Source: Chloroflexota bacterium (GTDB taxonomy: Bacteria > Chloroflexota > Anaerolineae > J102). From it: a stretch of DNA of 29,452 nucleotides. Made by a program: the position numbers and the translations under genes. Shown here piece by piece: positions 1 to 29,452 of the stretch. Position 1 is the first letter of the stretch. Each line of letters begins with the position of its first letter. The notes under the pieces are model-generated. The model was given only the letters and a program-made list of their open reading frames with translations. It did not search any database and was not told where the DNA came from. The stretch is from assembly GCA_024276255.1 (NCBI GenBank), contig JAJRXO010000126.1, forward strand, positions 1-29,452, in the 5' to 3' direction.

Positions 1-1077
1 AATCGGCAGATCATACATCAAGCTTTGTTGCAGACGGGTGGCGGCATCGCCCATCATCACGCCTTTTGCAAGGCCCTCGGCCGAAAGGCCTGCCGTGAGT
101 AGACCATAGTAAAAACCGGCTGTCCAGGCATCACCTCCGCCTAGGCGATCCCACACATGCAGGCCACGCACCGCGGGCGAGCGAAAAAAGGCACCATCGG
201 ATGTGGAAGCACAGGCTTCCCAGCGTTGCTCCTCCATCGTATCGACATAACGCATGGTAAAAGCCACGGCACGCAAGTCAAAGCGCTCGATGACAGCCTG
301 AGCCACTGCCTGCAGCGCCTCGTCTGGCAGGCCTTCGATATTCTCGCTACGGATGGCATCGCCCCAGCGGCCATCGCAGCCGATGTTGTAAAACGCGGCC
401 ATGTCCTGCACAGTGGTGATCAGCACATCCACGTGGTCTTCCAGTATGGGGGTGAGCGTGGCTCTGGCCGCCTGCAGGGGCCACAGGGTACGGCGATAAT
501 TGAAATCAAGCCCTACCAGACAGTGGGCCGGCTTGTGCACCAATGCCTCACGAAAGGCAGCCAGCCAATGGTTGGTGCTGTAGCCGCTGTGTGCGGCCAG
601 CCCAAAGGTGATGCCGGTTGTATGCAGTAACCTAGCCCCGGCTAGGGCCTGAGCCCAGGCCACCATACCCTTCCCCAGCCGTGAACTGGCGGCGTACATG
701 CGTTGGTACACGCCGACCGTGGGCCGGGGGGTGCGACCAAGTTCGAAGATGAAGCGGGCCATGGGTTCGGTTTTGGGGGCCCACACGAAAAACCGCGTAT
801 CTACACCGTAAGAGCGGGCCGTGTTGCGCAGCATGTGGCCGTAGGGGTTGTCGGGTACGCGGGTGATATAGGCGCTGGGAATACCCCAACGGCTGAGGGC
901 GACGGTGGTCGAAAACTCGCTACCAGCCAGTGATAGATAAACCAGTCGTGTGCGTTCCGGTCGTTCCAGATCGGCTGGAGTGTCGCGCACCATAGTCTCG
1001 CCAAAGCTAACAAACCAGGGATCGGTGGCGGCAGGGGATGCGTCGTGGCCACCGGCAACTGCGGGTTGTGAATTCAT
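1..1077 (-). CDS. PfkB-family sugar kinase, divergent KdgK-like; 3' end runs off the window
   Basis: Not in the ORF track; translated by hand as an open frame from ATG 1077 (alternative ATG 1092) to base 1: MNSQP...WFVSFGETMVRDTP...LAGSEF...LHTTGITFG...LDFNYRRTLW...VWDRLGGGDAWTAGFYYGLL. Contains the PfkB C-terminal DxxGGGD motif. Confidence 0.9.
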   Translation of the reverse strand, partial: MNSQPAVAGGHDASPAATDPWFVSFGETMVRDTPADLERPERTRLVYLSLAGSEFSTTVALSRWGIPSAYITRVPDNPYGHMLRNTARSYGVDTRFFVWAPKTEPMARFIFELGRTPRPTVGVYQRMYAASSRLGKGMVAWAQALAGARLLHTTGITFGLAAHSGYSTNHWLAAFREALVHKPAHCLVGLDFNYRRTLWPLQAARATLTPILEDHVDVLITTVQDMAAFYNIGCDGRWGDAIRSENIEGLPDEALQAVAQAVIERFDLRAVAFTMRYVDTMEEQRWEACASTSDGAFFRSPAVRGLHVWDRLGGGDAWTAGFYYGLLTAGLSAEGLAKGVMMGDAATRLQQSLMYDLPI

Positions 1078-1101
1078 GGGTGTATCCGTCATGAAGACGC
1101 T

Positions 1102-1896
1102 TTACGAAGCTGTTTCGGACGCGGGCTCTGGCCCAGGCCAGCCCAATTCGCGGGAGATTTTTCCGGCGGCCTGCAAGACCACAGGGGCCAGGGCTTCCAT
1201 GCGTTGCCGATCCAGAAACGGTGTGGCGCTGGCAATACTGATGGCGGCTACGCATTGACCCGTGCCATCGAAAATGGGGGCTGCCACGCAGCGGATGCCG
1301 ATTTCGTTTTCTTCCATGTCGAAGGAATAGCCTCGTTGGGCGGTGCGGGCCAGTTCTTGGAAAAAGGCTTCCGGCTCGACTTTGGTGTAGGGGGTTTGGC
1401 GCTTAAGATGCGGGATGAAGCGTTGCCATTGAGTGGGTGGCAACTGCGAGAGCAGGGCTTTTCCCAGGCCGGTGCAATACGCCGGTTGGCGGCCGCCAAT
1501 GGTCGAGGCCATGTGAAGCCCCCTTTCTCCATCCACTTTATCGAGATAGAAGACCTCGTTGCCTTCCAGGATGCCCAGGTGCACGGTTTCATGGGTCTCT
1601 GATGCAAGCCATTCCAGGTGCGGGCGGGCCAGCGTGGGCAAATGCAGTTGGTTATGTGCCTTGAATCCCAGCTCGATGAGCTTGGGGCCCATGTGATAGC
1701 CGCGCCGCGGCTCATAGCGCAGGTAATCTGCTTGCACCAGCGTATGGAGTAAACGATAGGCGGTGCTGGTGGACAAGCCTGTCGTGCGGCTGATGGTTTG
1801 CAGGTCCTGCACACCGTCCGCCACGGCTTCCAGCAAGGCCAGTGCACGGATGACTGTGCGGGCGCCGCTGCTTTTAGTGGATGGCGAATCTGTCAT
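1102..1896 (-). CDS. IclR-family transcriptional regulator
   Basis: HTH (ARTVIRALALLEAV...GLSTSTAYRLLHTL) plus IclR effector domain (LGKALL, GIRCVAAPIFD). Start moved to ATG 1896, which has GAGGT upstream. Confidence 0.93.
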   Translation of the reverse strand: MTDSPSTKSSGARTVIRALALLEAVADGVQDLQTISRTTGLSTSTAYRLLHTLVQADYLRYEPRRGYHMGPKLIELGFKAHNQLHLPTLARPHLEWLASETHETVHLGILEGNEVFYLDKVDGERGLHMASTIGGRQPAYCTGLGKALLSQLPPTQWQRFIPHLKRQTPYTKVEPEAFFQELARTAQRGYSFDMEENEIGIRCVAAPIFDGTGQCVAAISIASATPFLDRQRMEALAPVVLQAAGKISRELGWPGPEPASETAS

Positions 1897-1927
1897 CTTG
1901 ACCTCGTCTGGGAAGGACGGTACTGAC

Positions 1928-1982
1928 AAGAGAGTTTGAGCTTACAGGGCGAAAGCCAGAACTGCATCGAACGCACTCTCTT
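1928..1982. other. Intergenic stem-loop upstream of iclR
   Basis: AAGAGAGT (1928-1935) / ACTCTCTT (1975-1982) inverted repeat enclosing GGC-GAAA-GCC. Confidence 0.45.
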
Positions 1983-2067: not shown

Positions 2068-3033
2068 TCAGGTGCTCCGTCCTTGCACAACAACATAGAG
2101 CGGCCTACCTTCCTGCGCCCAGTTAATCACATTCAGCGCAGCTTTCCGACGCAGTTCCAGTCCCGCCTGTTCTGAATACCAGGCGGCATGGGGACTGAGC
2201 AGCAGGCGAGGATGTTGTAAAATTGGCAGCTCAGGCGGCGGCGGTTCCTGGGGAAGTACATCGAGGGCGGCGCCGGCCAGATGTCCGCTGTCTAAAGCCC
2301 CTTGTAGCGCTGCCAGATCAATCAGGCCACCACGCGAGACATTTACGAGATAGCTGCCAACCGGCATGTGACTGAGAAAGTCCTCGTCCACGAGGTTCCG
2401 GGTTTCAGCCAGCAAAGGTAGGTGCAACGAGACAACATGTGAACGGGCCAGGAGGGCGGGCAGGTCGTCTTCATGTTGCACAAAGTCTGGCCAGGCTGCG
2501 ACAGGCAGATAGGGATCATAACCAATGATACTGCCAAACAGGGGTTGAGCGAAAGTCGCCAGCTGACGGCCGATACGGCCAAGGCCCACCACGCCAAGCG
2601 TGCGCGTGCTCAGGCGGTGGAGGGGGCCACTGCTTTGATATTGCCAAATGCCACGGCGCACGTCCGCATCCAGCCAGGGGAGGTGGCGAAGGAGAGCCAG
2701 TATCATGGCCAGGGCGTGGCTGGCGACTTCTTCAACGCCGTAGTCGGGCACATTGGCCACCCACACCCCCAACTCCTGTGCTGCCTGCAAGTCAACGGTA
2801 TCGACGCCCACCCCGTAGCGACTGACGAGTCGTATCTGAGGAAGGGCTTCCAGCACATGGCGGGTGATGGGCGCGTATTGGGTGATCAGGGCGTGGGCAT
2901 CTTGGCCGGCAACAATGACATCCTGCTCGCTGCGGCATTGGGCAATAGCCACCGTAAAACCTGCTTCTTGCAGGGGTGGTACTTCGAGGGCGTGCAGATC
3001 TGGATATTCGGCGTCGGTGATCAAGACTTTCAT
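2068..3033 (-). CDS. D-isomer-specific 2-hydroxyacid dehydrogenase (CtBP/PGDH-like, no ACT domain)
   Basis: RYGVGVD, VVGLGRIG Rossmann motif, NVSRGG, LDV..EP, SPHAAWYS. Confidence 0.92.
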   Translation of the reverse strand: MKVLITDAEYPDLHALEVPPLQEAGFTVAIAQCRSEQDVIVAGQDAHALITQYAPITRHVLEALPQIRLVSRYGVGVDTVDLQAAQELGVWVANVPDYGVEEVASHALAMILALLRHLPWLDADVRRGIWQYQSSGPLHRLSTRTLGVVGLGRIGRQLATFAQPLFGSIIGYDPYLPVAAWPDFVQHEDDLPALLARSHVVSLHLPLLAETRNLVDEDFLSHMPVGSYLVNVSRGGLIDLAALQGALDSGHLAGAALDVLPQEPPPPELPILQHPRLLLSPHAAWYSEQAGLELRRKAALNVINWAQEGRPLYVVVQGRST

Positions 3034-3043: not shown

Positions 3044-3889
3044 TCAGGATTTGACGGCGCCGGCCGTGAGGCCCTTGACGATGTATTTTTGCGCCAGGAT
3101 GAAGAAGGTGATGCTGGGGATGACGGCGATCACGCCCGCCGCGCTCATGCGGTTCCAGTAGGTGAGCTCGTCTCCGACGAAGTAATAGATGCCCACGGTC
3201 AGGGGTTTGAGTTCGTCAGAGTTGATGAATAAGTAGGGGGCCAGGAATTCGTTCCAGGTCCACATAAAGGCCATGACCGCTACAGCCATGATGGCCAGAA
3301 TGGTAACGGGCAGGACGATGCGGAAGAGCGTACCTGTCCGGGACGCGCCATCGATGACCGCGGCATCGATCAATTCACGCGGAAAGTCGTCGAAAAAGCC
3401 TTTGAGCAGCCACACCATGAGCGGGTAGGACAGATAGATGGTGTAGATGATTACGGCGGTGCGGGTGTTGATCAGCCCCAGCTTGAGGAAGACCACGTAA
3501 AAGGGCAGGATCAGGGAGATCGGAGGGATGACACGGGTAAAGATGAAAAGTGTCAGCACGGTGTTGCTGCCCTTGAATTTGTATTGGCTGAGGCCATAAG
3601 CCGTGAAGGTGCCGGCCACCAACGTGAATGCCACTGTCACCAGGGCAATGATGGTGGAGTTCAGGAGATAGGTGGGCAGTGGGGCCTTGTTCCAGGCCTG
3701 GGAATAGGCTTCCAGGGTGAAGTCGTGCGGCCAATAAGTAGGCGGCGACTGGAAGAGCTCACTCATGGTTTTGAACGAAGACAACACCATCCACAAAAGG
3801 GGCAGTAGCAGGAAAAAGAGAATGAAACTTACAACTACGTAGGCCGTGAGCCGCTGTTCAAGGATGCGGTCAAGCGTACGACGTATCAT
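3044..3889 (-). CDS. Carbohydrate ABC transporter permease (MalG-like)
   Basis: Multiple TM segments, EAA-like loop (ELIDAAVIDGAS), WNEFL motif. Confidence 0.93.
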   Translation of the reverse strand: MIRRTLDRILEQRLTAYVVVSFILFFLLLPLLWMVLSSFKTMSELFQSPPTYWPHDFTLEAYSQAWNKAPLPTYLLNSTIIALVTVAFTLVAGTFTAYGLSQYKFKGSNTVLTLFIFTRVIPPISLILPFYVVFLKLGLINTRTAVIIYTIYLSYPLMVWLLKGFFDDFPRELIDAAVIDGASRTGTLFRIVLPVTILAIMAVAVMAFMWTWNEFLAPYLFINSDELKPLTVGIYYFVGDELTYWNRMSAAGVIAVIPSITFFILAQKYIVKGLTAGAVKS

Positions 3890-3892: not shown

Positions 3893-4762
3893 TTAGCGCT
3901 CCCCGAATGCCATGCGAATAAAGCCAACGCCGATAAGCAGGGTGAGGATAAAAATGACGACACCCGTGGCGGCAGCTACGCCAAAATTCAGATATTTAAA
4001 AATGGAATCGAACAAATATACGCCTCCGAGATAGGTCGATTTGGCTACCCCGCCGCCGGGCGTCATGGAGAAGATCACATCCACAGTGCGGAAGGAGAAC
4101 ATGATTGTTGTGAACAGTCCCAGCAGGATGGGGCGGCGGTTGAGGGGCACCGAGATATAGGCGAAACGGTCGAACACGTCGGCGCCATCCACCTTTGCCG
4201 CTTCGTACAATTCCTGTGAGATGGCCTGCAGGCCCGCCAGGATGAGAATGGCCATAAAGGGGATTCGTGTCCAGGCATCAGCCACGATCACGCCGACCAT
4301 AGCCAGACGTGGATTGCCGAAAATGTTTATTGGCTCCTGGATAAGATGTAGTTTGAGCAGGATGTCGCTGAACACTCCGAATGCGGGATTAAACACCCAG
4401 GCCCAAATGAAGCCGCTGATCACCAGCGGCACTGCCCACGGCAATACAGTGAGCGAGCGAAAGATGGCCACACCCTTGCCCATGGCATTCAGCCCGTGGG
4501 CGAGCGCCATACCCACGAAAAAGGTGAGGGCTGTGGAGCCCATCGAGAAAATGATCGTGTTTTTCATCGACAGCCAGAACACCCGATCATCGAACATGTA
4601 CTGGTAGTTTTTAAGGCCGATGAATTTGATCGGGCGGATGTTATCGTAGCGTAGAAAGCTGAGGCCAAAGAGATAGCCGGAGGGGATAAGCACCAGGACC
4701 AGCAACAAGATCAGGCCTGGCAAGGATAACAGTGCCCCGTATTTACTGTCGCTTAGTCGCAT
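3893..4762 (-). CDS. Carbohydrate ABC transporter permease (MalF-like)
   Basis: FIGLKNY, LAGLQAISQELYEAAKVDGA EAA loop. Start moved to ATG 4762 with AGGAG upstream. Confidence 0.93.
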   Translation of the reverse strand: MRLSDSKYGALLSLPGLILLLVLVLIPSGYLFGLSFLRYDNIRPIKFIGLKNYQYMFDDRVFWLSMKNTIIFSMGSTALTFFVGMALAHGLNAMGKGVAIFRSLTVLPWAVPLVISGFIWAWVFNPAFGVFSDILLKLHLIQEPINIFGNPRLAMVGVIVADAWTRIPFMAILILAGLQAISQELYEAAKVDGADVFDRFAYISVPLNRRPILLGLFTTIMFSFRTVDVIFSMTPGGGVAKSTYLGGVYLFDSIFKYLNFGVAAATGVVIFILTLLIGVGFIRMAFGER

Positions 4763-4799
4763 AAACGCACTCCTGGAGCGTTGGCAGGTGGGAAAACGA

Positions 4800-4851
4800 C
4801 CGGCGAGGCGCCGGCAGAGCATCTGCACGATGATGCTGAGCGCCTCGCCGG
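4800..4851 (-). other. Strong hairpin between binding-protein and permease genes (mRNA stabiliser or attenuator)
   Basis: Perfect 12-bp stem CCGGCGAGGCGC / GCGCCTCGCCGG with inner AGCATC/GATGCT stem; no clear U-tract. Confidence 0.7.
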
Positions 4852-4895: not shown

Positions 4896-6419
4896 CTATT
4901 GCGGTGACAGGTATTTGGTGATGTCGGTGTTGGCAGCCTGCAGCGCTTCCAGCGGTTCCATCTCGCCAGTAACGGCCCTGCCGTAGTACTCGATCAGGGC
5001 TTCAAGAGCCGCTTTCGAGCCGGGCGGGAAGGCTTCCATCACCGTCGTCTCGGCCGAGGCGCGACGGGCCTCCAGCTTGGGCACTTCGGTGACATGCGGC
5101 GGAGCCTTGATGTCGAGCTCTTTGGCGGCAGCGTCTACCAGATCCCAGTCCACCTTGCTGATGATGTCGGGTTCGTAGGTGGCGGGCAGCCATGATTCGT
5201 TGCCCTCGACAGCCATTTCATACATCTGCGCCTGCTTGCTGCGGCGATAATCGAACCACAGCATGGCGGCAGCCTTCACCTTGGGAGGGGCGAATTTATT
5301 GATCAGATTGGCGTCGAAGTCGATGAAGGCGGCGCGGTTCGAGCCGGGTTGGGAGGCGTCCCACTTGGGCGGAGCCACCACGTCCCAGTCCGTGCCCAGT
5401 TCGGGCCAGGCTTCAGTGTTGGTGAACTGCATGGCGTAGGTGGAGAAGCCGAGCATGAAGGCGGCTTTACCCAGGCCGAAGGTCTTCTGGTAGTCTTCCC
5501 AAGTGTAGCCCAACACGGCCTCGTCGGCAATGCCCTCTCTCACCAGGTTCACCCAGTATTCCCAGGAGTTCTGGAATTCGGGGCTCATCACATCCCACGA
5601 ACCGTTTTTCAGCACCCGGCCACCCTGCGAATACACACCGGCCTGCAGCATGTGCGACAGGTTGTAGTCGCCGGGGAAGACAATGCCATACGAGTCGGTC
5701 TTGCCCTGCGAGACGAAGTATTCGCGAGCTTTCTTGGCCGCGCGATAGACATCCTGCCAGGTTTCGGGCACGGGTTCGCCGATAGCTTCCAGCACCGAGG
5801 GCCGGTAGAAGAAGAGATAGGATCGCTCCGTGTCGCAGGTGCCATAGAAATGACCTTCCCACTGGATGGCGTCCACCAGGCCTTTGGGATACAGCGCCTG
5901 TACTTCAGGCGGCCACAGCACGTCCAGCGATTCGTGCCAGCCGGCGGCCATGGTTTGCGTCAGTTCCAACGGAGCGTCGGTATGGCTGACGATGGCCACG
6001 CTGCTGTCTTTGGACGAAAGCGTGGAAAGGGTCTTGGCGAAAAGAAAGCCCGCGCCAACATCGATGTTCTTGAGCTTGATGCCAGTAAGCTGCTCAAAGA
6101 TCATCATGTTTACTTTGGTGGCGATGTCCCCTTGCATACCACCGGAATTGTAAAACACGATTTCATCTACACCGGCTGTAGCCTCTTGCCAGCCCTCAGG
6201 CAGCACATATTCGTCCGCCAGCAGGCGTTCGGTCATGGGCATGGGCTCATTCCACTTGATCTGCTCCCAGGGCTGGAGCGGAACAGGCGTGGGCGTGGCC
6301 TCTACCACTTTTTCAACGACTTTTTCAACCACTTCCGGTGTGGGTGCCGGCTGTGAACAGGCCGTTAAAACAGCCAACACCAGGATCAACACAAATGTGA
6401 GAACCAAACCTTTTTTCAT
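4896..6419 (-). CDS. Carbohydrate ABC transporter substrate-binding lipoprotein
   Basis: MKKGLV...VLTAC lipobox, Pro/Thr linker, family-1 solute-binding features (GKAAFM), upstream of two permeases. Start moved to ATG 6419 with AGGAG. Confidence 0.88.
   Translation of the reverse strand: MKKGLVLTFVLILVLAVLTACSQPAPTPEVVEKVVEKVVEATPTPVPLQPWEQIKWNEPMPMTERLLADEYVLPEGWQEATAGVDEIVFYNSGGMQGDIATKVNMMIFEQLTGIKLKNIDVGAGFLFAKTLSTLSSKDSSVAIVSHTDAPLELTQTMAAGWHESLDVLWPPEVQALYPKGLVDAIQWEGHFYGTCDTERSYLFFYRPSVLEAIGEPVPETWQDVYRAAKKAREYFVSQGKTDSYGIVFPGDYNLSHMLQAGVYSQGGRVLKNGSWDVMSPEFQNSWEYWVNLVREGIADEAVLGYTWEDYQKTFGLGKAAFMLGFSTYAMQFTNTEAWPELGTDWDVVAPPKWDASQPGSNRAAFIDFDANLINKFAPPKVKAAAMLWFDYRRSKQAQMYEMAVEGNESWLPATYEPDIISKVDWDLVDAAAKELDIKAPPHVTEVPKLEARRASAETTVMEAFPPGSKAALEALIEYYGRAVTGEMEPLEALQAANTDITKYLSPQ
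6306..6335 (-). repeat. 12-bp tandem repeat encoding (VVEK)n linker
   Basis: cactttttcaac-gactttttcaac-cacttc on + strand, encoding EVVEKVVEKVV. Confidence 0.75.
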
Positions 6420-6515
6420 TGTGCTTCTCTCTCCTTGGAGAAAACGAGTGAATACAGTAGCGCGCAAGTGCCATGATGCCTGCGCTGGTTTCGGCGTCGA
6501 TAGATGAACTGAATT

Positions 6516-6541
6516 GGCTGGACTCACCTCCTTTACAATGA
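6516..6541 (-). promoter_or_regulatory. Orphan extended Shine-Dalgarno-like element (STAB-SD-like) in the binding-protein 5' UTR
   Basis: Minus strand TCATTGTAAAGGAGGTGAGTCCAGCC; no suitably spaced start codon; about 105 nt upstream of ATG 6419. Confidence 0.6.
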
Positions 6542-6824
6542 CAGAAAGTGGTGCCTGGACGCTAACGATTTGAGTTTCCCACCACGTACTCTCTCGAATT
6601 CCACATAGCGTTGAGCCATTTATGCGTGTCATTCGAACAATATGTGGCAAGGTTACTCAAGCATCTGTTACTGTTTTCGCCTGGCACCAGCAAGATGAGG
6701 GAACGATAGATTTGGCCAGTCGACGAGACGTCATTGACTCAGTGTGGCCATCCATAGTGGTGTCAGCAATACGATGCAAGGACATTAAATTGCATAGAAT
6801 GAAAATAGCATTTATAGAATGGGA

Positions 6825-6853
6825 ATTATAATGCACTTGCTCGAAGATGTCAA
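6825..6853 (-). promoter_or_regulatory. Consensus sigma70 promoter for the sugar ABC operon
   Basis: Minus strand TTGACA-N17-TATAAT, a perfect match. Confidence 0.85.
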
Positions 6854-6956: not shown

Positions 6957-8162
6957 CTAGCGGATGTCCTCCCGCTCCCAGTGATCGCCCATGGTGCGCC
7001 GACCAACAGCCAGCCCCTGGCCTGATGACACCTGACGCTGGACAGAGGGATCGGCCAAGGTATCGACTCTCAGCCGTACACCGTGGCCTGGTCCCTGAGG
7101 CAAAGCAAAGCTGCCGTTTTCGAGTAACGGCGTATAAGCGCTGATAGTGGCAAAAGCCTCCCGGTACAGGGCTCGGCTGGACTCCACAAAGAACAGGTTG
7201 TGGATGTGGGCAGCGAGGTGCAGGCACACGGCGTGGCATACTGGTCCCGACAAATTATGCAGTACCAGTGGCACACCAAAAGTGTCGGCCAGCGCGGCCA
7301 TGCGGCGTGTCTCGGCCACGCCGCCGTTCCAAAGGGGATCGGTCATGAGGATGGAACCGGCTTGTTTGACCAGCCATTCACGTACCTGCCAGCGTGTCAT
7401 CAGCGTCTCAGAGCCCACAACCGGAATACGAATACGCTGTGTCAGCAGCCGCAGTTCATCGATATGCAGCGCTGGCAGAGGGTCTTCGAGGAAGAGAATG
7501 TCATAAGGCTCGAGCGCCTGGGCGATGCGCTCGGCTGCCACCCGGTTCCAGCGAAAATGGCATTCGATACCGATTTCTATCTCGTCGCCGACGGCTTCAC
7601 GAATACGGCGGATGGGCTCCAGGGCGCGTTCAAGAGCCGCCGGTTCGATGTATTGGCCGTGCGATTGCTCACTAAAAGTGTCGAACGGCCAGATTTTCAT
7701 GGCCCGCACGCCATCGGCCAGCAGGCTCTTTGCCAGAGAACCAGCGTCACCCTGGCGCCATGTTTCGTAATCACGTGTCTCACCAAAGCTGATGCACGTG
7801 TTGTATGTGGGGATGCGCTCGCGCACTTTCCCCCCTAAAAGCTGGTAAAGGGGCATGTCGGCCTCCTGGCCCAGCAGGTCCCACAGTGCGATCTCGACCG
7901 CCGACAAAGCACGCAACTCGGCGCCGCTATAGCCGTGATACAGCAGGTTGTCGAACACAAAGCGCCACAGACCTTCAATGTCTTGAGACTCCTGCCCCAG
8001 CAAGAGCGGGGCCAGCGTGCCGTGCAAAGCGCCAAGCGTCCCGGCTGTTTTCTCTGATGTTTCTCCCAATCCTACGAGACCACTATCGCTATGCACTTGC
8101 ACAAACAGTGTGCGCGGCATGTGCGGCCATTGCAAACTTTCGATGGCAGCGATCCTGGACAT
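6957..8162 (-). CDS. Mandelate racemase-subgroup enolase-superfamily enzyme, probable sugar-acid dehydratase
   Basis: GLGET N-terminal domain, SAVEIALWD, ligand motifs IECH / LEDP / GSET, His-Asp dyad (MTDP...VLHN). Start moved to ATG 8162 with GAGGT. Confidence 0.88.
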
Positions 8163-21562: not shown

Positions 21563-21570
21563 GGGCAATT

Positions 21571-21599: not shown

Positions 21600-21604
21600 A
21601 TGCC

Positions 21605-21631
21605 TATCAGCCTGTATGATAATATATGATA
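21605..21631. promoter_or_regulatory. Candidate GntR-family operator
   Basis: TATCA-N7-TGATA palindrome (21605-21621) plus TATGATA direct repeats (21615-21621, 21625-21631). Confidence 0.5.
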
Positions 21632-21647
21632 CGATCGCACTTGTCAA
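21619..21647 (-). promoter_or_regulatory. sigma70-type promoter for the leftward arm
   Basis: Minus strand TTGACA-N17-TATTAT. Confidence 0.75.
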
Positions 21648-21687
21648 ATTCATCAATGGTGCTGAACACTTCATGCAAGGAGTACAA

Positions 21688-22409: not shown

Positions 22410-23558
22410 ATGAAACAGGAACCCAGACCGGCCGAATTGATACCGAAGCTGCAGCATGCCTTTGAATTTGCCCAGCGGCAGGTCAAGCAATTGATCACCG
22501 CCTACCCCGACTTCTTCCCCATATACACGCAGGGGGGGAAGTGGAAGCACACGGGCGAGGCATGGACAAACTGGTGCGAAGGTTTTTTGGGCGGCATGAT
22601 GTGGCTATTTCATCGTCGCTGTGGCAGTTCTTTCTGGCGCCAGCAGGCCGAGCACTATTCTCGCCTTCTGGAACCCCGCAAGTATGACCGCAACGTCCAT
22701 GATCTGGGGTTTGTTTTCTGGTCCTCCTGGAAGCGGTGGTATGATCTCACAGGTGATCCGCCGTTGAACGAGGTAATTATCACCGCCGGGCAGACCATGA
22801 GCCTGCGTTTCAAAGAAAAAGGTCAGTATCTACGATCCTTTGTGGCCGACAACTCGCTCTTTATCGACATCATGATGAATGTGGGAATCGTCTTTTATGC
22901 GGCTCAGCAAACCGACGATGCCGACCTGCTGCGCAAGGCCCATGCCCACTGCCTGACCACTCGGCGCACGCTGGTGCGAGGTGACGGTTCCACCGCCCAC
23001 GAGGGCCTTTTCGACCTGGCGAGCGGCGAGTTCCTGCGGCAGTCTACCCATCAGGGCTGGCGAGGCGATTCGGCCTGGGCCAGGGGACAGGGTTGGGCGT
23101 TGTATGGCTTTAGTACTGCCTATGAGATGACGGGCGAGCGTAAGTATCTGCAAACGGCCAAGATGTGCGCCGACTATTATATTGAAAGCACCTCCTTTGA
23201 TGATGATGCCCCCTTCGGGCCAGGAGTACCGCCCAACGACTGGCAGGAACCGGGCAGTCTGGCCGAGAGTTCGGCTGCTGCCATTGCTGCCAGCGGCCTG
23301 CTGGATCTGGCCCGTCTGGATCAGGACCCCGTGCACGCTGCCCGCTATCGTCAGGCTGCCCTCATCATTCTCGACACCCTCACCGGCCCCGACTATCTGG
23401 CTGATCACACGCCAGGTTGGGAGGGCATTCTCCTGCATGGCAGCTATCATCAGCGTAAGGGCCTGGGCGTGGATGAAAGTGTGATGTGGGGTGAGCATTT
23501 CTTTGTGGAGGCCATCGATAAGGCCTTGACCCTGCTGGAAGGAGAAAGCCAGGCATGA
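22410..23558 (+). CDS. ugl: GH88 unsaturated glucuronyl hydrolase, cytoplasmic
   Basis: WCEGF, HDLGF, FIDIMMN (two catalytic Asp positions), HQG...SAWARGQGWALYGF, SSAAAIAASG; no signal peptide. Confidence 0.88.
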   Translation: MKQEPRPAELIPKLQHAFEFAQRQVKQLITAYPDFFPIYTQGGKWKHTGEAWTNWCEGFLGGMMWLFHRRCGSSFWRQQAEHYSRLLEPRKYDRNVHDLGFVFWSSWKRWYDLTGDPPLNEVIITAGQTMSLRFKEKGQYLRSFVADNSLFIDIMMNVGIVFYAAQQTDDADLLRKAHAHCLTTRRTLVRGDGSTAHEGLFDLASGEFLRQSTHQGWRGDSAWARGQGWALYGFSTAYEMTGERKYLQTAKMCADYYIESTSFDDDAPFGPGVPPNDWQEPGSLAESSAAAIAASGLLDLARLDQDPVHAARYRQAALIILDTLTGPDYLADHTPGWEGILLHGSYHQRKGLGVDESVMWGEHFFVEAIDKALTLLEGESQA

Positions 23559-24334
23559 ACAGAGAGCAAGTCGCTATTGTAACCGGCAGCAGCCGGGGGA
23601 TCGGCCGGGGCATTGCCCTGGCGTTGGCCGAAAACGGCTGGCGCATCGTCATCAACTATCGTAACAAGCGCACAGCAGCCGACCAGACGGCGCGAGATGT
23701 ACGCTCTCAGGGCGGCGAAGCCCTGGTTGTGCAGGCCGATATCGGCGATCTGGACAGCTTGCAAGGGCTGGTGGATGTGACGCTGGCGCAATGGGGCCGC
23801 ATTGACATGCTGGTGAACAACGCTGGCATTGCTCCCCGTCAGCGTCTGGACATCCTGCAGACCACACCAGAAAGCTACGACGAGGTGATGGCCGTGAATT
23901 TGCGGGGACCCTTTTTCCTCAGCCAGCGCGTGGCGCGGGAGATGATTCGCTTGTTGCAGCTGGGCGTGATCAACGCCCCCAAGATCGTCAATATCGGGTC
24001 TATCAGCGCCTACACCAGCTCCACCTCACGCGGTGAATACTGCATCAGCAAGGCCGGCGTGGGCATGATGACCAAACTGTGGGCCGATCGCCTGGCCGAG
24101 TATGGCATCAATGTGTATGAAATCCGTCCCGGCATTATCGCCACCGACCTCACCGCGGCGGTAAAAGAGAAATATGACCGGCTTATCCTCGAAGAGGGTC
24201 TAACCCCGATTCGTCGCTGGGGCCGGCCAGACGACATCGCTAAAGCAGTGCTTGCCATCGCCAGTGATCTGTTCCCCTTCTCCACCGGCGAGGTGATCAA
24301 TGTTGATGGTGGCTTCCATTTACATCGTCTGTAA
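23555..24334 (+). CDS. Classical SDR oxidoreductase
   Basis: TGSSRGIG, NNAG, S...YCISK; ATGA overlap with the GH88 gene. Confidence 0.92.
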   Translation: MNREQVAIVTGSSRGIGRGIALALAENGWRIVINYRNKRTAADQTARDVRSQGGEALVVQADIGDLDSLQGLVDVTLAQWGRIDMLVNNAGIAPRQRLDILQTTPESYDEVMAVNLRGPFFLSQRVAREMIRLLQLGVINAPKIVNIGSISAYTSSTSRGEYCISKAGVGMMTKLWADRLAEYGINVYEIRPGIIATDLTAAVKEKYDRLILEEGLTPIRRWGRPDDIAKAVLAIASDLFPFSTGEVINVDGGFHLHRL

Positions 24335-24381: not shown

Positions 24382-25416
24382 ATGCCCAGGATCGTCACAT
24401 TTGGCGAGATAATGCTGCGGCTTTCGCCACCGGGACATTTTCGTTTTTCGCAGGCCCGCAGCTTTGATGTCATCTACGGCGGCGGTGAGTCCAATGTCGC
24501 CGTGTCGCTGGCCCACTTCGGGATGAATACCGAGTTCGTAACTCGCCTTCCGGCCAATGATATCGGCGACGCCTGCCTGAATTACTTGCGTCAGTTTGGC
24601 GTGGGGGTACGACACGTGGCACGAGGGGGCGAGCGTCTGGGTATTTATTTTTTGGAACATGGCGCCGTAAGCCGCGGCAGCAAGGTGATCTACGACCGGG
24701 CCCGCTCGGGCCTGGCCACCATTGAGCCCGGTATGATCGACTGGGACGCCGTGTTTGCCGAGGCTGACTGGTTCCATTGGACAGGAATCACGCCCGCCAT
24801 TTCGGCGGGAGCAGCGGCCACCTGCCTGGAGGCAGTGAAGGCTGCCAGAGCACACGGCCTTACTGTGTCCTGCGACCTCAATTATCGCAAGAAGTTGTGG
24901 AAGTGGGGCAAGGAACCAGGCGCAGTCATGGGGGAGCTGGTACAGTATTGCGACATCGCCGTCGGCAACGAGGAGGACGCGGACAGGGTGTTCGGCATCC
25001 ATGCCCCACACACCGATGTCACCTCGGGCAGGCTCGATGCCGCTCAATATGAGTACGTTTGCCACGAGCTGGGTACGCGTTTTCCCAACCTGCACACCAT
25101 CGCCATCACCCTGCGTGGCTCCCTCTCGGCCAGTCACAACACCTGGAGCGCCGTGCTCTGGCATGGCGGGCAACTCTACTTCGGCCCGCAATACGATATC
25201 ACGCACATCGTGGATCGGGTGGGCGGTGGCGACAGTTTTGTAGCCGGGCTGATCTACGGCCTGCTCAGCTATGGCGATGACAGGCAAAAGACGCTGAATT
25301 TTGCCGTGGCCGCCTCGGCACTCAAACATACTATTTTCGGTGATTTCAATCTTGTCACCGTGCCGGAAGTAGAAAAACTCATGGCCGGCGATGCCTCCGG
25401 CCGGGTGAGCCGTTAA
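24382..25416 (+). CDS. kdgK: 2-keto-3-deoxygluconate kinase (PfkB)
   Basis: FGEIMLRLSP, GGGESNVA, DLNYRKKLW, GNEED, DRVGGGDSF. Confidence 0.92.
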   Translation: MPRIVTFGEIMLRLSPPGHFRFSQARSFDVIYGGGESNVAVSLAHFGMNTEFVTRLPANDIGDACLNYLRQFGVGVRHVARGGERLGIYFLEHGAVSRGSKVIYDRARSGLATIEPGMIDWDAVFAEADWFHWTGITPAISAGAAATCLEAVKAARAHGLTVSCDLNYRKKLWKWGKEPGAVMGELVQYCDIAVGNEEDADRVFGIHAPHTDVTSGRLDAAQYEYVCHELGTRFPNLHTIAITLRGSLSASHNTWSAVLWHGGQLYFGPQYDITHIVDRVGGGDSFVAGLIYGLLSYGDDRQKTLNFAVAASALKHTIFGDFNLVTVPEVEKLMAGDASGRVSR

Positions 25417-25436: not shown

Positions 25437-26123
25437 ATGGCTAAATTCTCACGTCTGACCGTGCTTAATACTATGATCGAAACCGGTCTGGTGCCGGTTT
25501 TCTACCACCCCGATGTGGAGGTGGCCGCACAGATAGTGCAGGCCTGTGTCGATGGCGGCGCCCGCTGCATCGAATTCACCAACCGCGGAGATCAGGCCCA
25601 TCTCGTTTTCGGCGAGTTGGTACGCCGTTTTTGGGATGACGAGCGGGTGATCCTGGGCGTGGGCTCGGTGATCGATCCGATAGCCGCGGGACTGTATATG
25701 CAACTGGGCGCCAATTTCGTGGTGGGACCGGTGCTTAACCCCGAAGTCGCCCGCCTGTGTAACCGTCGCAAGGTCGCCTATTCACCGGGTTGCGGCAGTG
25801 TCAGTGAGATATCGGCGGCTGAAGAACTGGGCGTGGAGATCGTCAAGGTCTTCCCCGGCAGCCAGGTCGGTGGTCCCGGCTTTGTCAAAGCCGTACGCGG
25901 CCCCATGCCCTGGACCCGTATTATGCCCACCGGTGGCGTATCGCCCGACGAAGAAAATCTGCGAGCCTGGTTTGCTGCTGGCGTGGCCTGTGTGGGCATG
26001 GGCAGCAAGCTCATTAGCAAAGATCTGGTGGCCGCCCGCGACTTCGCCGCCCTGCGCCAGCGTACTGCTGCAACCGTGGCGCTGATTCAAAATCTCAAGG
26101 CTGAAGTCGGAGAAAATTTGTGA
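25437..26123 (+). CDS. eda: KDPG/KHG aldolase
   Basis: EFTNR, GVGSV, KVFPG (Schiff-base Lys), MPTGGV; adjacent to kdgK. Confidence 0.92.
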   Translation: MAKFSRLTVLNTMIETGLVPVFYHPDVEVAAQIVQACVDGGARCIEFTNRGDQAHLVFGELVRRFWDDERVILGVGSVIDPIAAGLYMQLGANFVVGPVLNPEVARLCNRRKVAYSPGCGSVSEISAAEELGVEIVKVFPGSQVGGPGFVKAVRGPMPWTRIMPTGGVSPDEENLRAWFAAGVACVGMGSKLISKDLVAARDFAALRQRTAATVALIQNLKAEVGENL

Positions 26124-26212: not shown

Positions 26213-27661
26213 ATGAGCAACGGCTATCCCCGCATTGCCCGTCTGCGCACCCCGGACCTGTTTCGCAATCGCATCGAGGAGCTGGGAATCCACCTGCCCT
26301 TTGATGAAACGGTTAGCCCCGCCCCCGATGGCCCGCTGGCCCAACCCTACACGTTAAAAAACGGTCGCATCATCGGTAATCGCTTTGCCGTACACCCCAT
26401 GGAAGGCTGGGACGGAACGATCGACGGCCTGCCCACCGTGTACACCCGTCGGCGATGGGCCAACTTTGGCAAGAGCGGCGGCAAGCTGATCTGGGGAGGG
26501 GAGGCCGTGGCTGTGCGCCATGACGGGCGCGCCAACCCCAACCAGTTGCTGATGGCAGAGCGGAATCTGAGTGGTTTTGCTGCGCTACACCGCACCCTGG
26601 TGGACGCGCATCGCCAGGCACATGGCCGCACCGATGATCTGCTGATAGGCCTGCAACTGACCCACTCTGGCCGCTTTGCCCGCCCCAACATCAAAACCCG
26701 CCTCGAACCCAAGATACTCTACCATCATCCCCTGCTGGACAGGCTCTTTCACGTGGACCCAGAGTTGCCTGTGCTCACGGATGGCGAGATCGATGATCTG
26801 ATCGGCGATTTTGTGCAGGCGGCGAAGCTGGCAGCCTCGGTCGGCTTTGATTTCGTGGATATCAAGCATTGCCACGGCTATCTGGGACACGAGTTTCTCA
26901 GCGCCTACGCTCGGCCGGGGCGTTATGGCGGCAGCCTTGAGAATCGCACTCGCTTCTTGCGGGAGATCGTGGCGGGCATCCGCCGCGAGGTGCCCGAACT
27001 GATGATCGGTGTGCGCATCAGCGCCTTTGATTTCCCGCCCTTCCGGCCGGGCCCCGACGGCCGCGGAGTGCCGCTATGGTTGGACGACAAGGAGGGGTTG
27101 TATCCCTTCGGCTTCGGCGCCGATCATGATGATCCCTTCCAGGTAGCCATCGACGAGATCCTGGAATTCTTGCAACTGCTGCAGGCGTTGGACATCGAGC
27201 TGGTTAATCTTTCGTGCTGCAGTCCCTATTACAATCCTCATTTCATGCGTCCTGCCTACTTCCCTCCCTCCGACGGTTACCTGCCCCCCGAAGATCCGCT
27301 GGTGGGCGTGGCCCGACAGATCAATGTGGTCGCTTCGCTCAAGGAACACATGCCCGATTTAGCCATGGTGGGCACGGGCTACAGCTATCTGCAGGAGTGG
27401 CTGCCTAACGTGGCGCAATACGTGGTGCGTACCGGCATGGTGGATTTTGTGGGCCTGGGGCGCATGATCCTGGCTTATCCTGAGATGCCAGCGGACGTGC
27501 TGGCCGGCCGGGAACTGGCCCGCAAGCGCATCTGTCGTACCTTTAGCGATTGCACGACGGCCCCCCGCAATGGCCTGATATCGGGCTGCTATCCCCTGGA
27601 CGATTTTTACAAATCGCTGCCGGAAGCGATTCGCTTAAAGGAGGCCAAGCACAAAGCATAA
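26213..27661 (+). CDS. NADH:flavin oxidoreductase, Old Yellow Enzyme-like
   Basis: [42 protein letters not shown]. Confidence 0.9.
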
Positions 27662-29259
27662 TGCAAATCATCTCATCAGCACAAGCTGCAAGCCTGCTCC
27701 AGGATGGCGATACCCTCCTGATCGGCGGCTCGGGCGGCGGTCATGCCGTGCCTGAGTCCCTCATTGTTGCTCTGGCTGAACGTTTTCAGGCCGAAGGGCG
27801 GCCCCGCAATCTCACCTTGCTGCACCCGGTGGGTTTGGGCGACATGGATAGCCGGGGTGTGGACAGATTGGCGGGGAAAGGCCTGCTCAAGCGCATTGTT
27901 ACCGGTGCCCTGGTCAATACACCCGCCATTCAGCGCATGGCCCGCGCAGACCTCATCGAGGCCTACACCCTGCCGCAGGGCGCGCTCTCCCAGCTCATGC
28001 GCGAGATGGCGGCCGGACGGCCCGGCCTGCTCTCGCATGTGGGCTTGCACACCTTTGTCGATCCCCGGTATGGCGGCGGCCGCCAGAGCCCTTCAGCCAG
28101 AGAAGATCTGGTGGAATTGGTGGAGCTGGCCGGCGGGGAGTGGCTGTTCTACAAGCCCATTTCCGTGGATGTGGCCTTTTTACGGGGCACCACGGCTGAC
28201 GAGGATGGCAACGTGACCATGGAGAAAGAGGCGGTCTTTGGCGAGATGCTATCCATGGCGCAGGCAACCCGGCGCTACGGCGGCGTGGTTATCGCGCAGG
28301 TCGAACGCCTTGCCCAACGCCACACCTTGCCCCCCAAGCAGGTAAAGATCCCTGGCATGCTGGTTGATCTGGTAGTCGTCGATCCACAGCAACGACAGAC
28401 CTACGTTACTGACTACAGCCCTGCCTACGCCGGCGAGTTGCGTGTTCCCCTGCAAGATATCCCGTCCCTGCCTTTCGATGCCCGTAAGGTGATTGCCCGT
28501 CGGGCCGCCATGGAGCTCTTTCCCGGCGCTGTGTGCAATCTGGGAGCCGGTGTCTCGACCGGTATTGCCAACATCGCCGCCGAGGAGGGCTTTCTCGACC
28601 AGATCATCCTCACCAACGAGCAGGGCCTGATCGGTGGGGCTCCGGCTTCGGGAGTAGATGCGGGCGCTGCCGTCAATTACGATGCCATTGTGGACCAGCC
28701 CTATCAGTTTGATTTTTACGATGGCGGCGGCCTGGACCTGGCTTTCCTCTCCTTTGCCCAGGTCGATGCCGAGGGCAGCGTCAATATCAGCCGTTTTGGC
28801 GACCGCATCATCGGCATCGGTGGCTTCCAGAACATCGCTCAAAACGCCAAGACCGTGATCTTCAGCGGCACCTTCACCGCCGGGGGACTGGATATCACCT
28901 GGGAGCAGGGCCGCACCGTGATTCGCCGTGAGGGCCGCCATGCCAAATTTGTGGGGCAGCTCGAGCAGGTATCCTACAACGGCGCCTATGCTGCTTCGCT
29001 GGGACAGAATGTGCTCTTCGTCAGCGAGCGGGCCGTGTTTCGTCGCCAACGCCAGGGCATGGTTCTGGTGGAGATCGCGCCCGGTGTGGATCTACAGCGG
29101 GATGTGCTCGCTCACATGGCTTTTCGTCCCCTGATTTCGCCTCAGTTGCGGTTGATGGATGAACGCTTATTCCGGCCCGAGCTGATGAACTACGCCCCCA
29201 CGCTACTGGCCAAACCCCGGATCAACCTGCCTGCCCGGTTGCGAAACCTGATAACGTAA
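27661..29259 (+). CDS. Family I fused acyl-CoA:acetate/3-ketoacid CoA-transferase (YdiF/Pct-like)
   Basis: YTLPQG, GLHTFVDPR, NLGAG, catalytic ExGxxG (EQGLIG), YDGGGLD, GGFQNI. Start ATG 27661 overlaps the OYE stop (TAATG). Confidence 0.92.
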   Translation: MQIISSAQAASLLQDGDTLLIGGSGGGHAVPESLIVALAERFQAEGRPRNLTLLHPVGLGDMDSRGVDRLAGKGLLKRIVTGALVNTPAIQRMARADLIEAYTLPQGALSQLMREMAAGRPGLLSHVGLHTFVDPRYGGGRQSPSAREDLVELVELAGGEWLFYKPISVDVAFLRGTTADEDGNVTMEKEAVFGEMLSMAQATRRYGGVVIAQVERLAQRHTLPPKQVKIPGMLVDLVVVDPQQRQTYVTDYSPAYAGELRVPLQDIPSLPFDARKVIARRAAMELFPGAVCNLGAGVSTGIANIAAEEGFLDQIILTNEQGLIGGAPASGVDAGAAVNYDAIVDQPYQFDFYDGGGLDLAFLSFAQVDAEGSVNISRFGDRIIGIGGFQNIAQNAKTVIFSGTFTAGGLDITWEQGRTVIRREGRHAKFVGQLEQVSYNGAYAASLGQNVLFVSERAVFRRQRQGMVLVEIAPGVDLQRDVLAHMAFRPLISPQLRLMDERLFRPELMNYAPTLLAKPRINLPARLRNLIT

Positions 29260-29297
29260 AATCAGCCGTCTCTGCCCTTTCATGAGGAAAAAACAGT

Positions 29298-29452
29298 ATG
29301 GATACAAAAGTCGAATCCGAAGCGATTGCCGTCAGCTATCCGCGCGAGGGCGTGGCCCTGATTCAGATCCAGTCCAAACCGCTGGGCGTACTGCGTTTTG
29401 GCGTCAAGCAGGCGCTGCTCGCCCGCCTGCTTGAACTGGAGTCGGTTAAGAA
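29298..29452 (+). CDS. Probable enoyl-CoA hydratase/isomerase (crotonase) N-terminus, partial
   Basis: Hand translation MDTKVESEAIAVSYPREGVALIQIQSKPLGVLRFGVKQALLARLLELESVK; GAGGA RBS; resembles the crotonase N-terminal pattern; only 51 aa visible. Confidence 0.55.
   Translation, partial: MDTKVESEAIAVSYPREGVALIQIQSKPLGVLRFGVKQALLARLLELESVK

Follow-up and report, generated by a model that had tools for sequence, protein, structure and literature searches.

Two sets of genes transcribed away from each other out of a short region between two GntR-type regulator genes raise a simple question: do they serve a single pathway and, if so, what kind of compound enters it? The stretch considered here (the window) is 29,452 nucleotides long and is the entire contig C696 (JAJRXO010000126.1) of a Chloroflexota metagenome-assembled genome (MAG), G000, which comprises 704 contigs and 3.15 Mb and is 85% complete; the closest named matches to its proteins carry the labels Caldilineae, Caldilineales or Chloroflexota. 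An initial annotation had read the whole window as one divergent regulon through which a modified sugar acid is funnelled into 2-keto-3-deoxygluconate (KDG), and our analysis partly supports that pathway interpretation. The genes g08 to g28 (about 8.3–29.5 kb, continued on a second contig, C280; around 22 genes, with g07 probably to be included) may form a functionally coupled cluster for a compound of the uronic-acid type (a glycoside or a modified, e.g. methylated, uronate is probable), a conclusion that we draw with moderate confidence. What is new here is the presence, within a catabolic gene cluster, of a widespread uncharacterised enzyme family, that of g17 (enolX), together with MtaA-type proteins in an unusual context.

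The open reading frame (ORF) listing, combined with Pfam, NCBIfam and PDB searches, gave 28 genes, 20 on the minus strand and eight on the plus strand. These searches confirmed the gene content of the initial annotation, including its three transport systems (a sugar ABC importer, an NMT1/ThiY-like ABC importer and a purine-cytosine-permease-like permease); a short-chain dehydrogenase/reductase (SDR), an IclR regulator, a 2-hydroxyacid dehydrogenase and a second PfkB kinase had been left off its list. Two of its three enolase-superfamily enzymes are recognised by Pfam; the third, g17, has no Pfam match and carries invariant enolase-like motifs. Its probable crotonase, cut short by the contig end, is confirmed on C280, a 2.1-kb contig of the same assembly (locus L127; listed at window positions 29093–29452) that contains the last 60 bases of the window and carries the whole enoyl-CoA hydratase gene (268 amino acids, ECH_1) followed by a FAH-family gene. 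As C280 continues the right arm, the operon break is due to assembly and not to biology. The genes of the cluster, with g07, are as follows.

6957–8198, minus strand: g07, enolase-superfamily, acid-sugar-dehydratase-like (GalD/ManD-like) protein (Pfam MR_MLE_N, MR_MLE_C; NCBIfam below equivalog cut-offs)
8296–9438, minus strand: g08, URO-D-fold protein lacking the zinc motif of MtaA (Pfam PF01208, 137.6 bits; alignment)
9482–10294, minus strand: g09, xylose-isomerase-like TIM barrel, 'sugar phosphate isomerase/epimerase' (Pfam AP_endonuc_2; PDB 7vpf, 3ju2)
10296–11390, minus strand: g10, Gfo/Idh/MocA oxidoreductase 2 (Pfam; PDB 2p2s, 7e-123)
11424–12578, minus strand: g11, Gfo/Idh/MocA oxidoreductase 1 (Pfam; PDB 3q2k, 4.6e-45; 8tdi, 4.7e-35; DgpA, 5e-23)
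12657–13877, minus strand: g12, polytopic membrane protein, purine-cytosine-permease-like by JGI naming (152 homologues)
13887–14228, minus strand: g13, small single-domain cupin, 113 amino acids (Pfam Cupin_2; PDB 4h7l, 2e-23)
14232–15074, minus strand: g14, ATPase of an NMT1/ThiY-like ABC importer (Pfam)
15102–16136, minus strand: g15, NMT1-type binding protein (Pfam; PDB 4nmy, 3e-23)
16253–17071, minus strand: g16, permease of the NMT1/ThiY-like ABC importer (Pfam)
17068–18531, minus strand: g17 (enolX), unnamed enolase-like protein of 487 amino acids with putative MLE-type motifs (homologue alignment)
18528–19721, minus strand: g18, MLE-like enolase-superfamily enzyme with N-F-K replacing K-x-K (Pfam; PDB chloromuconate cycloisomerase, 1e-34)
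19750–20856, minus strand: g19, MtaA/CmuA-family URO-D-fold methyltransferase with H-x-C...C kept (NCBIfam; PDB 4ay7, 3.2e-59)
20861–21562 or 21589, minus strand: g20, GntR/FCD regulator of the left arm (Pfam GntR, FCD)
21563–21687, no strand: divergent control region between g20 and g21 (promoter scan, repeat search, orthologous regions)
21688–22389, plus strand: g21, second GntR/FCD regulator (Pfam; AAGGAG ahead of the ATG)
22410–23558, plus strand: g22, GH88 unsaturated glucuronyl hydrolase homologue (PDB 1vd5, 7.6e-46; Pfam PF07470)
23555–24334, plus strand: g23, SDR with a putative KduD/DhuD-like role (Pfam adh_short_C2)
24382–25416, plus strand: g24, PfkB 2-keto-3-deoxy-acid kinase-like (KdgK-like) protein (Pfam, NCBIfam)
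25437–26123, plus strand: g25, KDPG/KHG aldolase (Eda) (Pfam PF01081)
26213–27661, plus strand: g26, OYE-like flavoprotein (Pfam, NCBIfam)
27661–29259, plus strand: g27, family-I CoA-transferase, FadX/YdiF-like (Pfam, NCBIfam)
29298 to the end, plus strand: g28, start of an enoyl-CoA hydratase (crotonase), first 51 codons (confirmed on contig C280)

Conservation and control of the two arms

A search with g19 against 40 relatives, followed by a tblastn comparison of the contigs bearing orthologues with all window proteins, found orthologues with 70–82% identity in five genomes (G001, G004, G007, G008 and G010), each from a different genus but all in the same family; after these, g19 identity falls to 36% at best. 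The genes from g20 to g09 are colinear in G004, G007 and G010, and likewise in G001 and G008 within the reach of their short contigs. In every relative the second GntR gene is divergent from the first, and right-arm genes adjoin it where the contig goes on: the GH88-SDR-KdgK-Eda series comes next in G008 and G010, GH88 in G001, and SDR-KdgK-Eda-OYE-CoA-transferase-enoyl-CoA hydratase in G007, where GH88 is absent and the regulator pair duplicated. Co-occurrence of left- and right-arm genes in other genomes had been the check proposed in the initial annotation; for g08–g28, the arms are adjacent in all five g19-bearing relatives as far as their contigs extend. The second URO-D gene, g08, belongs to the left arm in the window, but in G007 and G010 it is found on the other arm, beyond the crotonase, FAH and zinc alcohol dehydrogenase (Zn-ADH) genes.

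Two of these loci show further peculiarities. The G007 junction (contig C384, locus L014, 11024–13880) holds two g21-like genes with one full and one truncated g20-like gene, and lacks GH88. On the G010 contig (C25, loci L016–L018) the matches to many cluster genes are broken into two to four segments lying in different frames, a pattern that points to frameshifts introduced by errors in long-read assembly or else to a decaying cluster in that genome.

Outside this family the cluster can be followed through g17. One-genome-per-species contigs gave at least 598 candidate stretches, and 575 of the 598 encode a g17 relative; all neighbourhood counts below refer to the best 80 of at least 575 confirmed enolX loci, with 10-kb flanks. 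Because antisense ORFs sometimes displaced real genes when the ORFs at these loci were clustered (e.g. the SDR in L027), tblastn was used alongside, and with the window proteins as queries it recognised the cluster at five of the 80 loci: those of G001 and G007, and three on more distant contigs (L023, L027 and L054, with record labels Anaerolineales or Chloroflexia) where it is rearranged. L027 carries, on one strand, GntR-GH88-SDR-OYE-enolX-permease-binding protein-ATPase-nitroreductase-Gfo2-Gfo1-TIM barrel, with a URO-D gene upstream. L054 runs OYE-CoA-transferase-enoyl-CoA hydratase-FAH-ZnADH-LacI-UROD1-MLE-enolX-ABC-cupin-permease-UROD2-Gfo1-Gfo2, its first five genes being in the right-arm order of G007, and L023 runs ZnADH-LacI-UROD1-UROD1-MLE-enolX-ABC-cupin-permease-UROD2-Gfo1-Gfo2-enolX paralogue. 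Functional coupling would lead one to expect that the genes of both arms stay together in varied orders, whereas simple inheritance would not, and since the arrangement is found again in other genomes we regard it as above chance.

The region between g20 and g21 measures 125 bp, the length given in the initial annotation, with the g20 start at 21562, and 98 bp with the start at 21589. A consensus scan predicts a rightward promoter (TTGCCA-17-TACAAT, 21571–21599) and a leftward one (TTGACA-17-TATTAT, 21647–21619), divergent and overlapping, with 20 nt between their −10 boxes; promoter-like sites number three in the region versus 0.7 ± 0.9 in shuffles. A 14-nt inverted repeat (21587–21600/21615–21628, 86% complementary) spans both −10 boxes, a TATGATA direct repeat occurs at 21615 and 21625 (spacing 10 nt), and both −35-like hexamers and the AT-rich core are found again in all seven orthologous intergenic regions. 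Joint control of both arms by one operator over the predicted promoters is plausible on this layout. The regulators g20 and g21 are unrelated members of GntR/FCD (18% identity), and g20 has orthologues of 56–70% identity at the same position in five relatives; with two unrelated GntR regulators and an IclR regulator in the window, the earlier label 'regulon' is not supported. Within the arms genes overlap at four junctions (ATGA at g18/g17, g17/g16 and g22/g23; TAATG at g26/g27), overlaps that had generously been called 'many'; the remaining junctions are mostly 1–10 nt, and the g09 start was set at MDLSRL, 1 nt past the g10 stop. Taken together, these comparisons show a conserved cluster whose modules are reshuffled between the arms and whose two arms are predicted to be transcribed from overlapping promoters in the gap between two different GntR/FCD genes.

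The alternative that survives best, and that we consider unlikely, is a patchwork: an ordinary unsaturated-uronate/KDG right arm and an unrelated catabolic left arm would share their promoter region by family inheritance. The lack of relationship between the two GntR proteins suggests two effectors, full colinearity is confined to one family, the far-left genes g01–g06 are demonstrably an unrelated neighbour (see below), and G007, with its duplicated regulator pair and no GH88, shows that the junction is plastic. What argues against a patchwork is the interleaving of both arms' genes on one strand in L027 and L054, the switch of URO-D2 from arm to arm between genomes, the passage of the OYE-CoA-transferase-enoyl-CoA hydratase-FAH-ZnADH module alongside left-arm genes in L054 and L023, and the common inverted repeat over both −10 boxes. 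In addition, Eda, KdgK and enolX genes are adjacent in a Clostridia MAG (locus L070), whose kinase is 60% identical to g24.

Sugar-acid enzymes, transporters and candidate substrates

Unsaturated-uronate catabolism, as found in degraders of glycosaminoglycans, pectin and alginate, proceeds through an unsaturated glucuronyl hydrolase (UGL, GH88), KduI or DhuI, KduD or DhuD, KdgK and KdgA/Eda. The window resembles it in having a GH88 homologue, an SDR, a PfkB kinase and a KDPG aldolase in one GntR-headed operon; it differs in having no KduI/DhuI-type isomerase or polysaccharide lyase, and in that the operon goes on with OYE, CoA-transferase, enoyl-CoA hydratase and FAH genes and is coupled to the left arm. 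Judged by its matches, g22 is a full-length homologue of characterised UGLs: it aligns with 1vd5 over residues 31–369 (7.6e-46) and with 3wiw, 2zzr and 3anj at 1e-37 to 1e-34, and scores 33.6 bits against PF07470 (cut-off 26.6) over residues 53–240. The aldolase g25 scores 117.1 bits against PF01081 (cut-off 27.8).

In the left arm, two Gfo/Idh/MocA oxidoreductases and a TIM barrel (g11, g10 and g09) are contiguous, and g11 matches 8tdi, 'P2B11 Glucuronide-3-dehydrogenase', at 4.7e-35 over residues 22–232. The P2B11 cluster is reported to have two oxidoreductases flanked by two 'sugar-phosphate isomerases', enzymes that together hydrolyse alpha- and beta-glucuronides via a 3-keto intermediate (10.1101/2024.03.25.586180). 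The window likewise pairs adjacent Gfo/Idh/MocA genes beside a 'sugar phosphate isomerase' TIM barrel. It has one TIM-barrel gene where P2B11 is described with two, and unlike P2B11 and the AL/BT 3-keto-glycoside clusters it lacks a DUF1080 protein and sets the trio among URO-D, enolase-superfamily and transport genes. On these sequence matches, g11-g10-g09 resemble a published glucuronide 3-keto cleavage cluster, and the earlier statement that no described pathway with such a composition was known needs amending for the Gfo/Idh/MocA pair and TIM barrel. The solved relatives of g09 (7vpf, 1.9e-75; 3ju2, 2.4e-72) are uncharacterised, as is that of g10 (2p2s), and no paper was found on PDB 7vpf, 4h7l or on SMc04130. 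Equating g09 and g10 with spiX and dhfX, predicted genes of the KdgR regulon of Dickeya, was considered and dropped; PMC6127512 cites these names from Rodionov 2004.

The transporters invite a second alternative: the left arm would import and degrade a nitrogen heterocycle or a uronic-acid N-glycoside (a pyrimidine-like or nucleoside-type uronate), with the Gfo/TIM-barrel enzymes taking off the sugar and the URO-D proteins demethylating or decarboxylating the ring. The binding protein g15 shows closer similarity to pyrimidine binders of the ThiY/THI5 type (overall about 1e-23 to 1e-14; 4nmy 3e-23, THI13/THI5 about 1e-19 to 1e-14, ThiY 3ix1 9.5e-15) than to sulfonate binders (SsuA, 2.4e-7), and JGI names the relatives of g12 purine-cytosine permease-like or cytosine permease. 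Moreover, the 3-keto route is reported to cut bonds beyond the reach of ordinary glycosidases (10.1101/2024.03.25.586180). We nevertheless regard this alternative as improbable: the window as a whole has no Rfam match at gathering scores, riboswitches included, the annotated window genes include no ring-opening amidohydrolase, deaminase or nucleoside hydrolase, and the transporter names derive from weak family resemblance, g12 having no Pfam match. A narrower proposal, uptake of thiamine pyrimidine by ThiXYZ/CytX-type transporters, was rejected because the window has no thiamine pyrophosphate (TPP) riboswitch.

Weakest of all, and to our minds very improbable, is the idea that the left arm degrades a cyclitol, either a methylated inositol or a compound similar to rhizopines. 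In such a pathway URO-D proteins would remove the O-methyl group, the Gfo/Idh/MocA enzymes and a TIM-barrel dehydratase would take the parts of IolG/IolE or MocA/MocC, and the PfkB kinase and aldolase would come last. The window presumably resembles moc and iol gene sets, there are weak NCBIfam matches (g10/g11 to IolG, g09 to IolO, g24/g01 to IolC) and PDB matches to inositol dehydrogenases and IolI, and a FAH-family enzyme could open a cyclic diketone, but the inositol-model scores all lie far below cut-offs, no IolD-like (thiamine diphosphate-dependent) enzyme is found among the annotated genes, the three enolase-superfamily enzymes need a carboxylate, which cyclitols lack, and GH88 would have no place.

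The g17 family, the URO-D proteins and a proposed route

The protein g17 has no Pfam match even at E ≤ 10 and no NCBIfam match, and its sole PDB sequence match has an E value of 0.18. The motifs K-I-K, DGNE, EQP, IDES, SHKNCKG and ERNG are invariant in 12 homologues from several phyla, as are K223/K225, D255, E290, D319 and K342/K345 in the 12 sequences, and from the alignment we infer that these residues lie on barrel strands as the K-x-K motif, the three metal-ligand carboxylates and the strand-6 Lys. Enolase-superfamily enzymes acting on uronate-derived acids include the glucarate/galactarate dehydratases, galactarolactone cycloisomerase (of the MLE subgroup) and mannonate dehydratase ManD. 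In motif pattern g17 and g18 would resemble them, with putative MLE-type K-x-K (in g18, N-x-K), D/E/D and strand-6 Lys residues, and the genomic context of the cluster's enolase-superfamily genes takes in KdgK and Eda; unlike them, g17 is about 100 amino acids longer. The Asn of the g18 N-x-K is kept in L021, L023 and L054.

The g17 family is large, with at least 4955 proteins at E ≤ 0.001, and spans at least eight bacterial phyla plus haloarchaeal plasmids; the sources given for relatives with 52–64% identity include Chloroflexota, Planctomycetota, Armatimonadota and Verrucomicrobiota. None of the 120 best matches has a functional name, all being 'hypothetical' or generic, and one stored homologue is annotated merely 'mandelate racemase family protein'; PF13378 is found on about 30% of members. 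A paralogue of some 470 amino acids (25–26% identity, weak MR_MLE_C) sits between Gfo2 and the TIM barrel in G004, G007, G010 and L023, and is present neither in the window nor elsewhere in G000 (tblastn, E ≤ 1e-5). Haloarchaeal megaplasmids (Natronococcus, Haladaptatus, Halosolutus; NZ_CP099392.1, NZ_CP119792.1 and others) carry homologues with 43–49% identity, and further matches on a Paenibacillus plasmid (H16) and in Neorhizobium (H23) were sparsely annotated and were not used.

Outside the cluster loci the neighbours of enolX vary by lineage, and certain partners recur. At six Chloroflexota loci enolX lies near homologues of g27 (50–53%) and of the SDR g23 (34–36%), and in L055, the one of these looked at more closely, a HAD hydrolase and a thiolase lie in between. 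A MetE-like protein stands directly beside enolX at seven of the 80 loci, in at least four phyla; all seven match Meth_synt_2, with H-x-C, E and C invariant, and G000 has no MetE-like gene of this type (tblastn, E ≤ 1e-5). Counting URO-D proteins (Chloroflexota) along with MetE-like ones (Verrucomicrobiota, Planctomycetota, Omnitrophota), a Zn-alkyltransferase-fold partner is present at 11 of 80 loci. Other neighbours are a TIM-barrel protein (10 loci, nine on Caldilineaceae contigs plus L027), 2-hydroxyacid dehydrogenases (18), an aldo-keto reductase (15), an M20 peptidase (14, mostly Latescibacterota) and a 25%-identical g17 paralogue (5). On a Natronococcus plasmid a 49% homologue stands beside four Gfo/Idh/MocA genes, a FAH gene and an IclR gene, and on a Rhizobium leguminosarum plasmid a 36% homologue comes last in an operon whose other genes encode an ABC transporter, a '5-deoxy-glucuronate isomerase' and a glycosyl hydrolase, as well as a TIM-barrel protein and a hydroxyacid dehydrogenase. 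The recurring partners are thus keto-deoxy sugar-acid enzymes and a Zn-alkyltransferase-fold protein, and because of them we infer that g17 abstracts a proton from a sugar acid and then carries out a beta-elimination or an epimerisation; the loci with an M20 peptidase make other substrates possible.

The two URO-D-fold proteins of the cluster differ at the active site. g19 scores above family cut-offs (NF004889, 342.9 bits versus 244; TIGR01463, 312 versus 235.4) and below the equivalog cut-off for MtaA (NF040654, 310.6 versus 400), and its LHICG and APGC motifs align with the same motifs of Methanosarcina MtaA (4ay7, 3.2e-59); the His-x-Cys...Cys residues of both we take to be zinc ligands. 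In g08 these positions read YHNDTP and LGGG, as they do in its counterparts in L023 and L054, which also lie inside the cluster, and every NCBIfam score of g08 is below its cut-off. By Pfam, G000 encodes 11 URO-D, 17 B12-binding and seven RACo matches, and no MtrH-type methyltransferase (0 matches). Relatives show an expansion of the fold, with 21–30 matches per genome to the g19 query in G004, G007, G010 and G018 and at least three active-site variants among them (H-x-C...C; H-x-C minus the last Cys; H-x-D...H).

We compared 20 loci of such paralogues from G004, G007, G008 and G010. H-x-C...C is present in 13 of their 32 URO-D ORFs, a corrinoid-protein homologue lies within the stretch at four of the 20 loci, and ABC transporter, SDR or Gfo genes are frequent neighbours. 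Foremost among them is contig C311 of G008 (L100, 684–8362), which carries on one strand a URO-D gene, a metallo-beta-lactamase fold, an enolase-superfamily gene, a corrinoid protein, a g07 orthologue (71%), an SDR and an MtaA-like URO-D gene; the corrinoid protein gene is thus flanked on both sides by a gene of acid-sugar-dehydratase-like type. These loci indicate that methyl-transfer machinery sits within sugar-acid gene sets in this family.

Multiple MtaA-like genes with a corrinoid protein and activator alongside are described for type 1 mlp clusters, which are reportedly tied to methyl-sulfur or methyl-selenium metabolism in obligate anaerobes, mostly Firmicutes (PMC10418091). The present cluster is similar in having several URO-D paralogues, with g19 MtaA-like, in a genome that has corrinoid proteins and RACo; it differs from the clusters described there in lacking a corrinoid protein and activator, in having sugar-acid enzymes as neighbours and in that g08 lacks the zinc motif. 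No paper tying corrinoid or URO-D methyltransferases to methyl-sugar catabolism was found among the matches listed from open-access text.

A joint interpretation of these two families is possible but doubtful. In it, pairs of URO-D proteins, zinc g19 with non-zinc g08, would demethylate O-methylated sugars or uronates (e.g. 4-O-methyl-glucuronate-type residues), with corrinoid proteins supplied from elsewhere or not needed; the g17 family would consist of new enzymes for beta-elimination on uronates or aldonates, supplying 2-keto-3-deoxy acids to KdgK and Eda; and enolX with a Zn-alkyltransferase-fold protein would form a conserved two-enzyme step.

For the cluster as a whole the following route can be proposed. 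The NMT1-type ABC importer g14–g16 and the permease g12 would import the substrate, and g11, g09 and g10 would cleave a glucuronide-type bond as in the P2B11 cluster, by C3 oxidation, 1,2-elimination, hydration and re-reduction. GH88 (g22) would free a 4,5-unsaturated uronate. g17, g18 and g07 would take the proton next to the carboxylate and either eliminate a beta substituent or epimerise, giving 2-keto-3-deoxy or 5-keto-4-deoxy acids, which the SDR g23, kinase g24 and aldolase g25 would convert to pyruvate and glyceraldehyde-3-phosphate. The putatively zinc-dependent, MtaA-type g19, with g08, would act on a methyl group, either with corrinoid proteins from other loci or with no corrinoid protein at all, and OYE, CoA-transferase, enoyl-CoA hydratase, FAH and Zn-ADH would process a second product as a CoA ester.

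Several findings weigh against this reading. The uronate chemistry rests on context, which has strengthened the earlier proposal of a modified sugar acid funnelled into KDG and leaves it an interpretation. The family-level MtaA models excepted, no enzyme assignment reaches an equivalog cut-off: g23 scores 168.7 bits on the KduD model TIGR01832 (cut-off 338.85) and g24 scores 230.9 and 47.3 on KDG kinase models with cut-offs of 440 and 400, so these scores place g23 and g24 in the SDR and PfkB families at family level only. KduI/DhuI (PF04962) has no match in G000, at its 85% completeness, and a KdgF role for the cupin g13 is unsupported, as its matches at E ≤ 0.01 include no KdgF or KduI structure and the best (4h7l, 2e-23) is uncharacterised. 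The top solved matches of g11 are 3q2k (4.6e-45) and 3q2i, ahead of 8tdi; we take both to be WlbA, the C3 dehydrogenase of a UDP-uronic acid, a point on which their PDB titles are silent. By sequence, both transporters, g12 and g14–g16, resemble pyrimidine/heterocycle importers more closely than sugar-acid importers.

The corrinoid machinery is likewise elsewhere. None of the 17 B12-binding or seven RACo matches of G000 is on C696, and no corrinoid protein was found on the orthologous stretches examined (tblastn with window proteins; Pfam on selected ORFs). C352, one of the G000 contigs with a corrinoid protein and the one examined, carries MttB-type systems (L124: an MttB-family methyltransferase, a corrinoid protein, a pterin-binding methyltransferase, a second MttB and, at the contig end, a second corrinoid protein); this set is a quaternary-amine-type corrinoid demethylation system. 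As for g17, 75 of the 80 enolX loci lack other cluster-specific genes nearby, and the varied contexts (M20 peptidase, aldo-keto reductase, MetE-like protein, AI-2E transporter) imply that its reaction need not be uronate-specific. The two divergent promoters are consensus predictions. Finally, the cluster is rare and its conservation inside one family partly reflects shared ancestry: a g18 search of 401 Chloroflexota genomes (G000 and 400 evenly drawn) gave matches at E ≤ 1e-60 in 19, none of those in the 400 exceeding 41% identity, and by that identity these are paralogues.

Should the reading hold, it would offer a lead to the function of a large unnamed enolase-superfamily family, place methanogen-type URO-D/MtaA methyltransferases, with 10–30 such genes per genome, in carbohydrate breakdown by Chloroflexota, and provide an environmental counterpart of oxidative (3-keto) glucuronide cleavage joined to the classical KDG pathway; should it fail, the locus is another unassigned catabolic island in a MAG.

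The left end of the contig

The leftmost genes are best kept apart from the cluster, contrary to the initial view of the whole window as one unit. They are the following.

1–1092, minus strand: g01, PfkB-family sugar kinase, 3' end beyond the contig edge; accessory block (Pfam PF00294)
1102–1929, minus strand: g02, IclR-family regulator; accessory block (Pfam IclR_C, HTH_IclR)
2068–3033, minus strand: g03, D-2-hydroxyacid dehydrogenase; accessory block (Pfam 2-Hacid_dh, 2-Hacid_dh_C)
3044–3889 and 3893–4828, minus strand: g04 and g05, permeases of a sugar-type ABC importer (Pfam)
4896–6650, minus strand: g06, SBP_bac_1 binding protein of the sugar-type ABC importer (Pfam)
6825–6853, minus strand: predicted sigma-70 promoter TTGACA-17-TATAAT ahead of g06 (consensus scan, 12/12 matches)

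None of g01–g07 is present at the orthologous loci of the five relatives and none of g01–g06 at related enolX loci (tblastn); for g06, the sole member of the block sought across whole genomes, all five relatives lack a match at E ≤ 1e-30. The 12/12 consensus promoter lies in the 306-bp gap between g07 and g06, and on that account g06–g01 are marked as a separate transcription unit. The absence from related loci, the lack of a g06 orthologue and the predicted promoter lead us to read this leftmost 6.9 kb as an accessory sugar-uptake operon, apart from the core. Its kinase, g01, scores below the cut-offs of the NCBIfam KDG-kinase models.

The final left-arm gene in the window, g07, scores 195 bits on NCBIfam GalD models and is probably a mobile member of the core. 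In G004 and G008 its orthologues (about 70–72% identity) neighbour URO-D genes on contigs other than that of the cluster. On the G004 contig (C122, L101, 2917–16002), three URO-D-fold genes, a CobW-family GTPase gene, a Peripla_BP_4 sugar ABC system and a GntR gene run divergently to a pair of SDR genes and the orthologue of g07 (70%).

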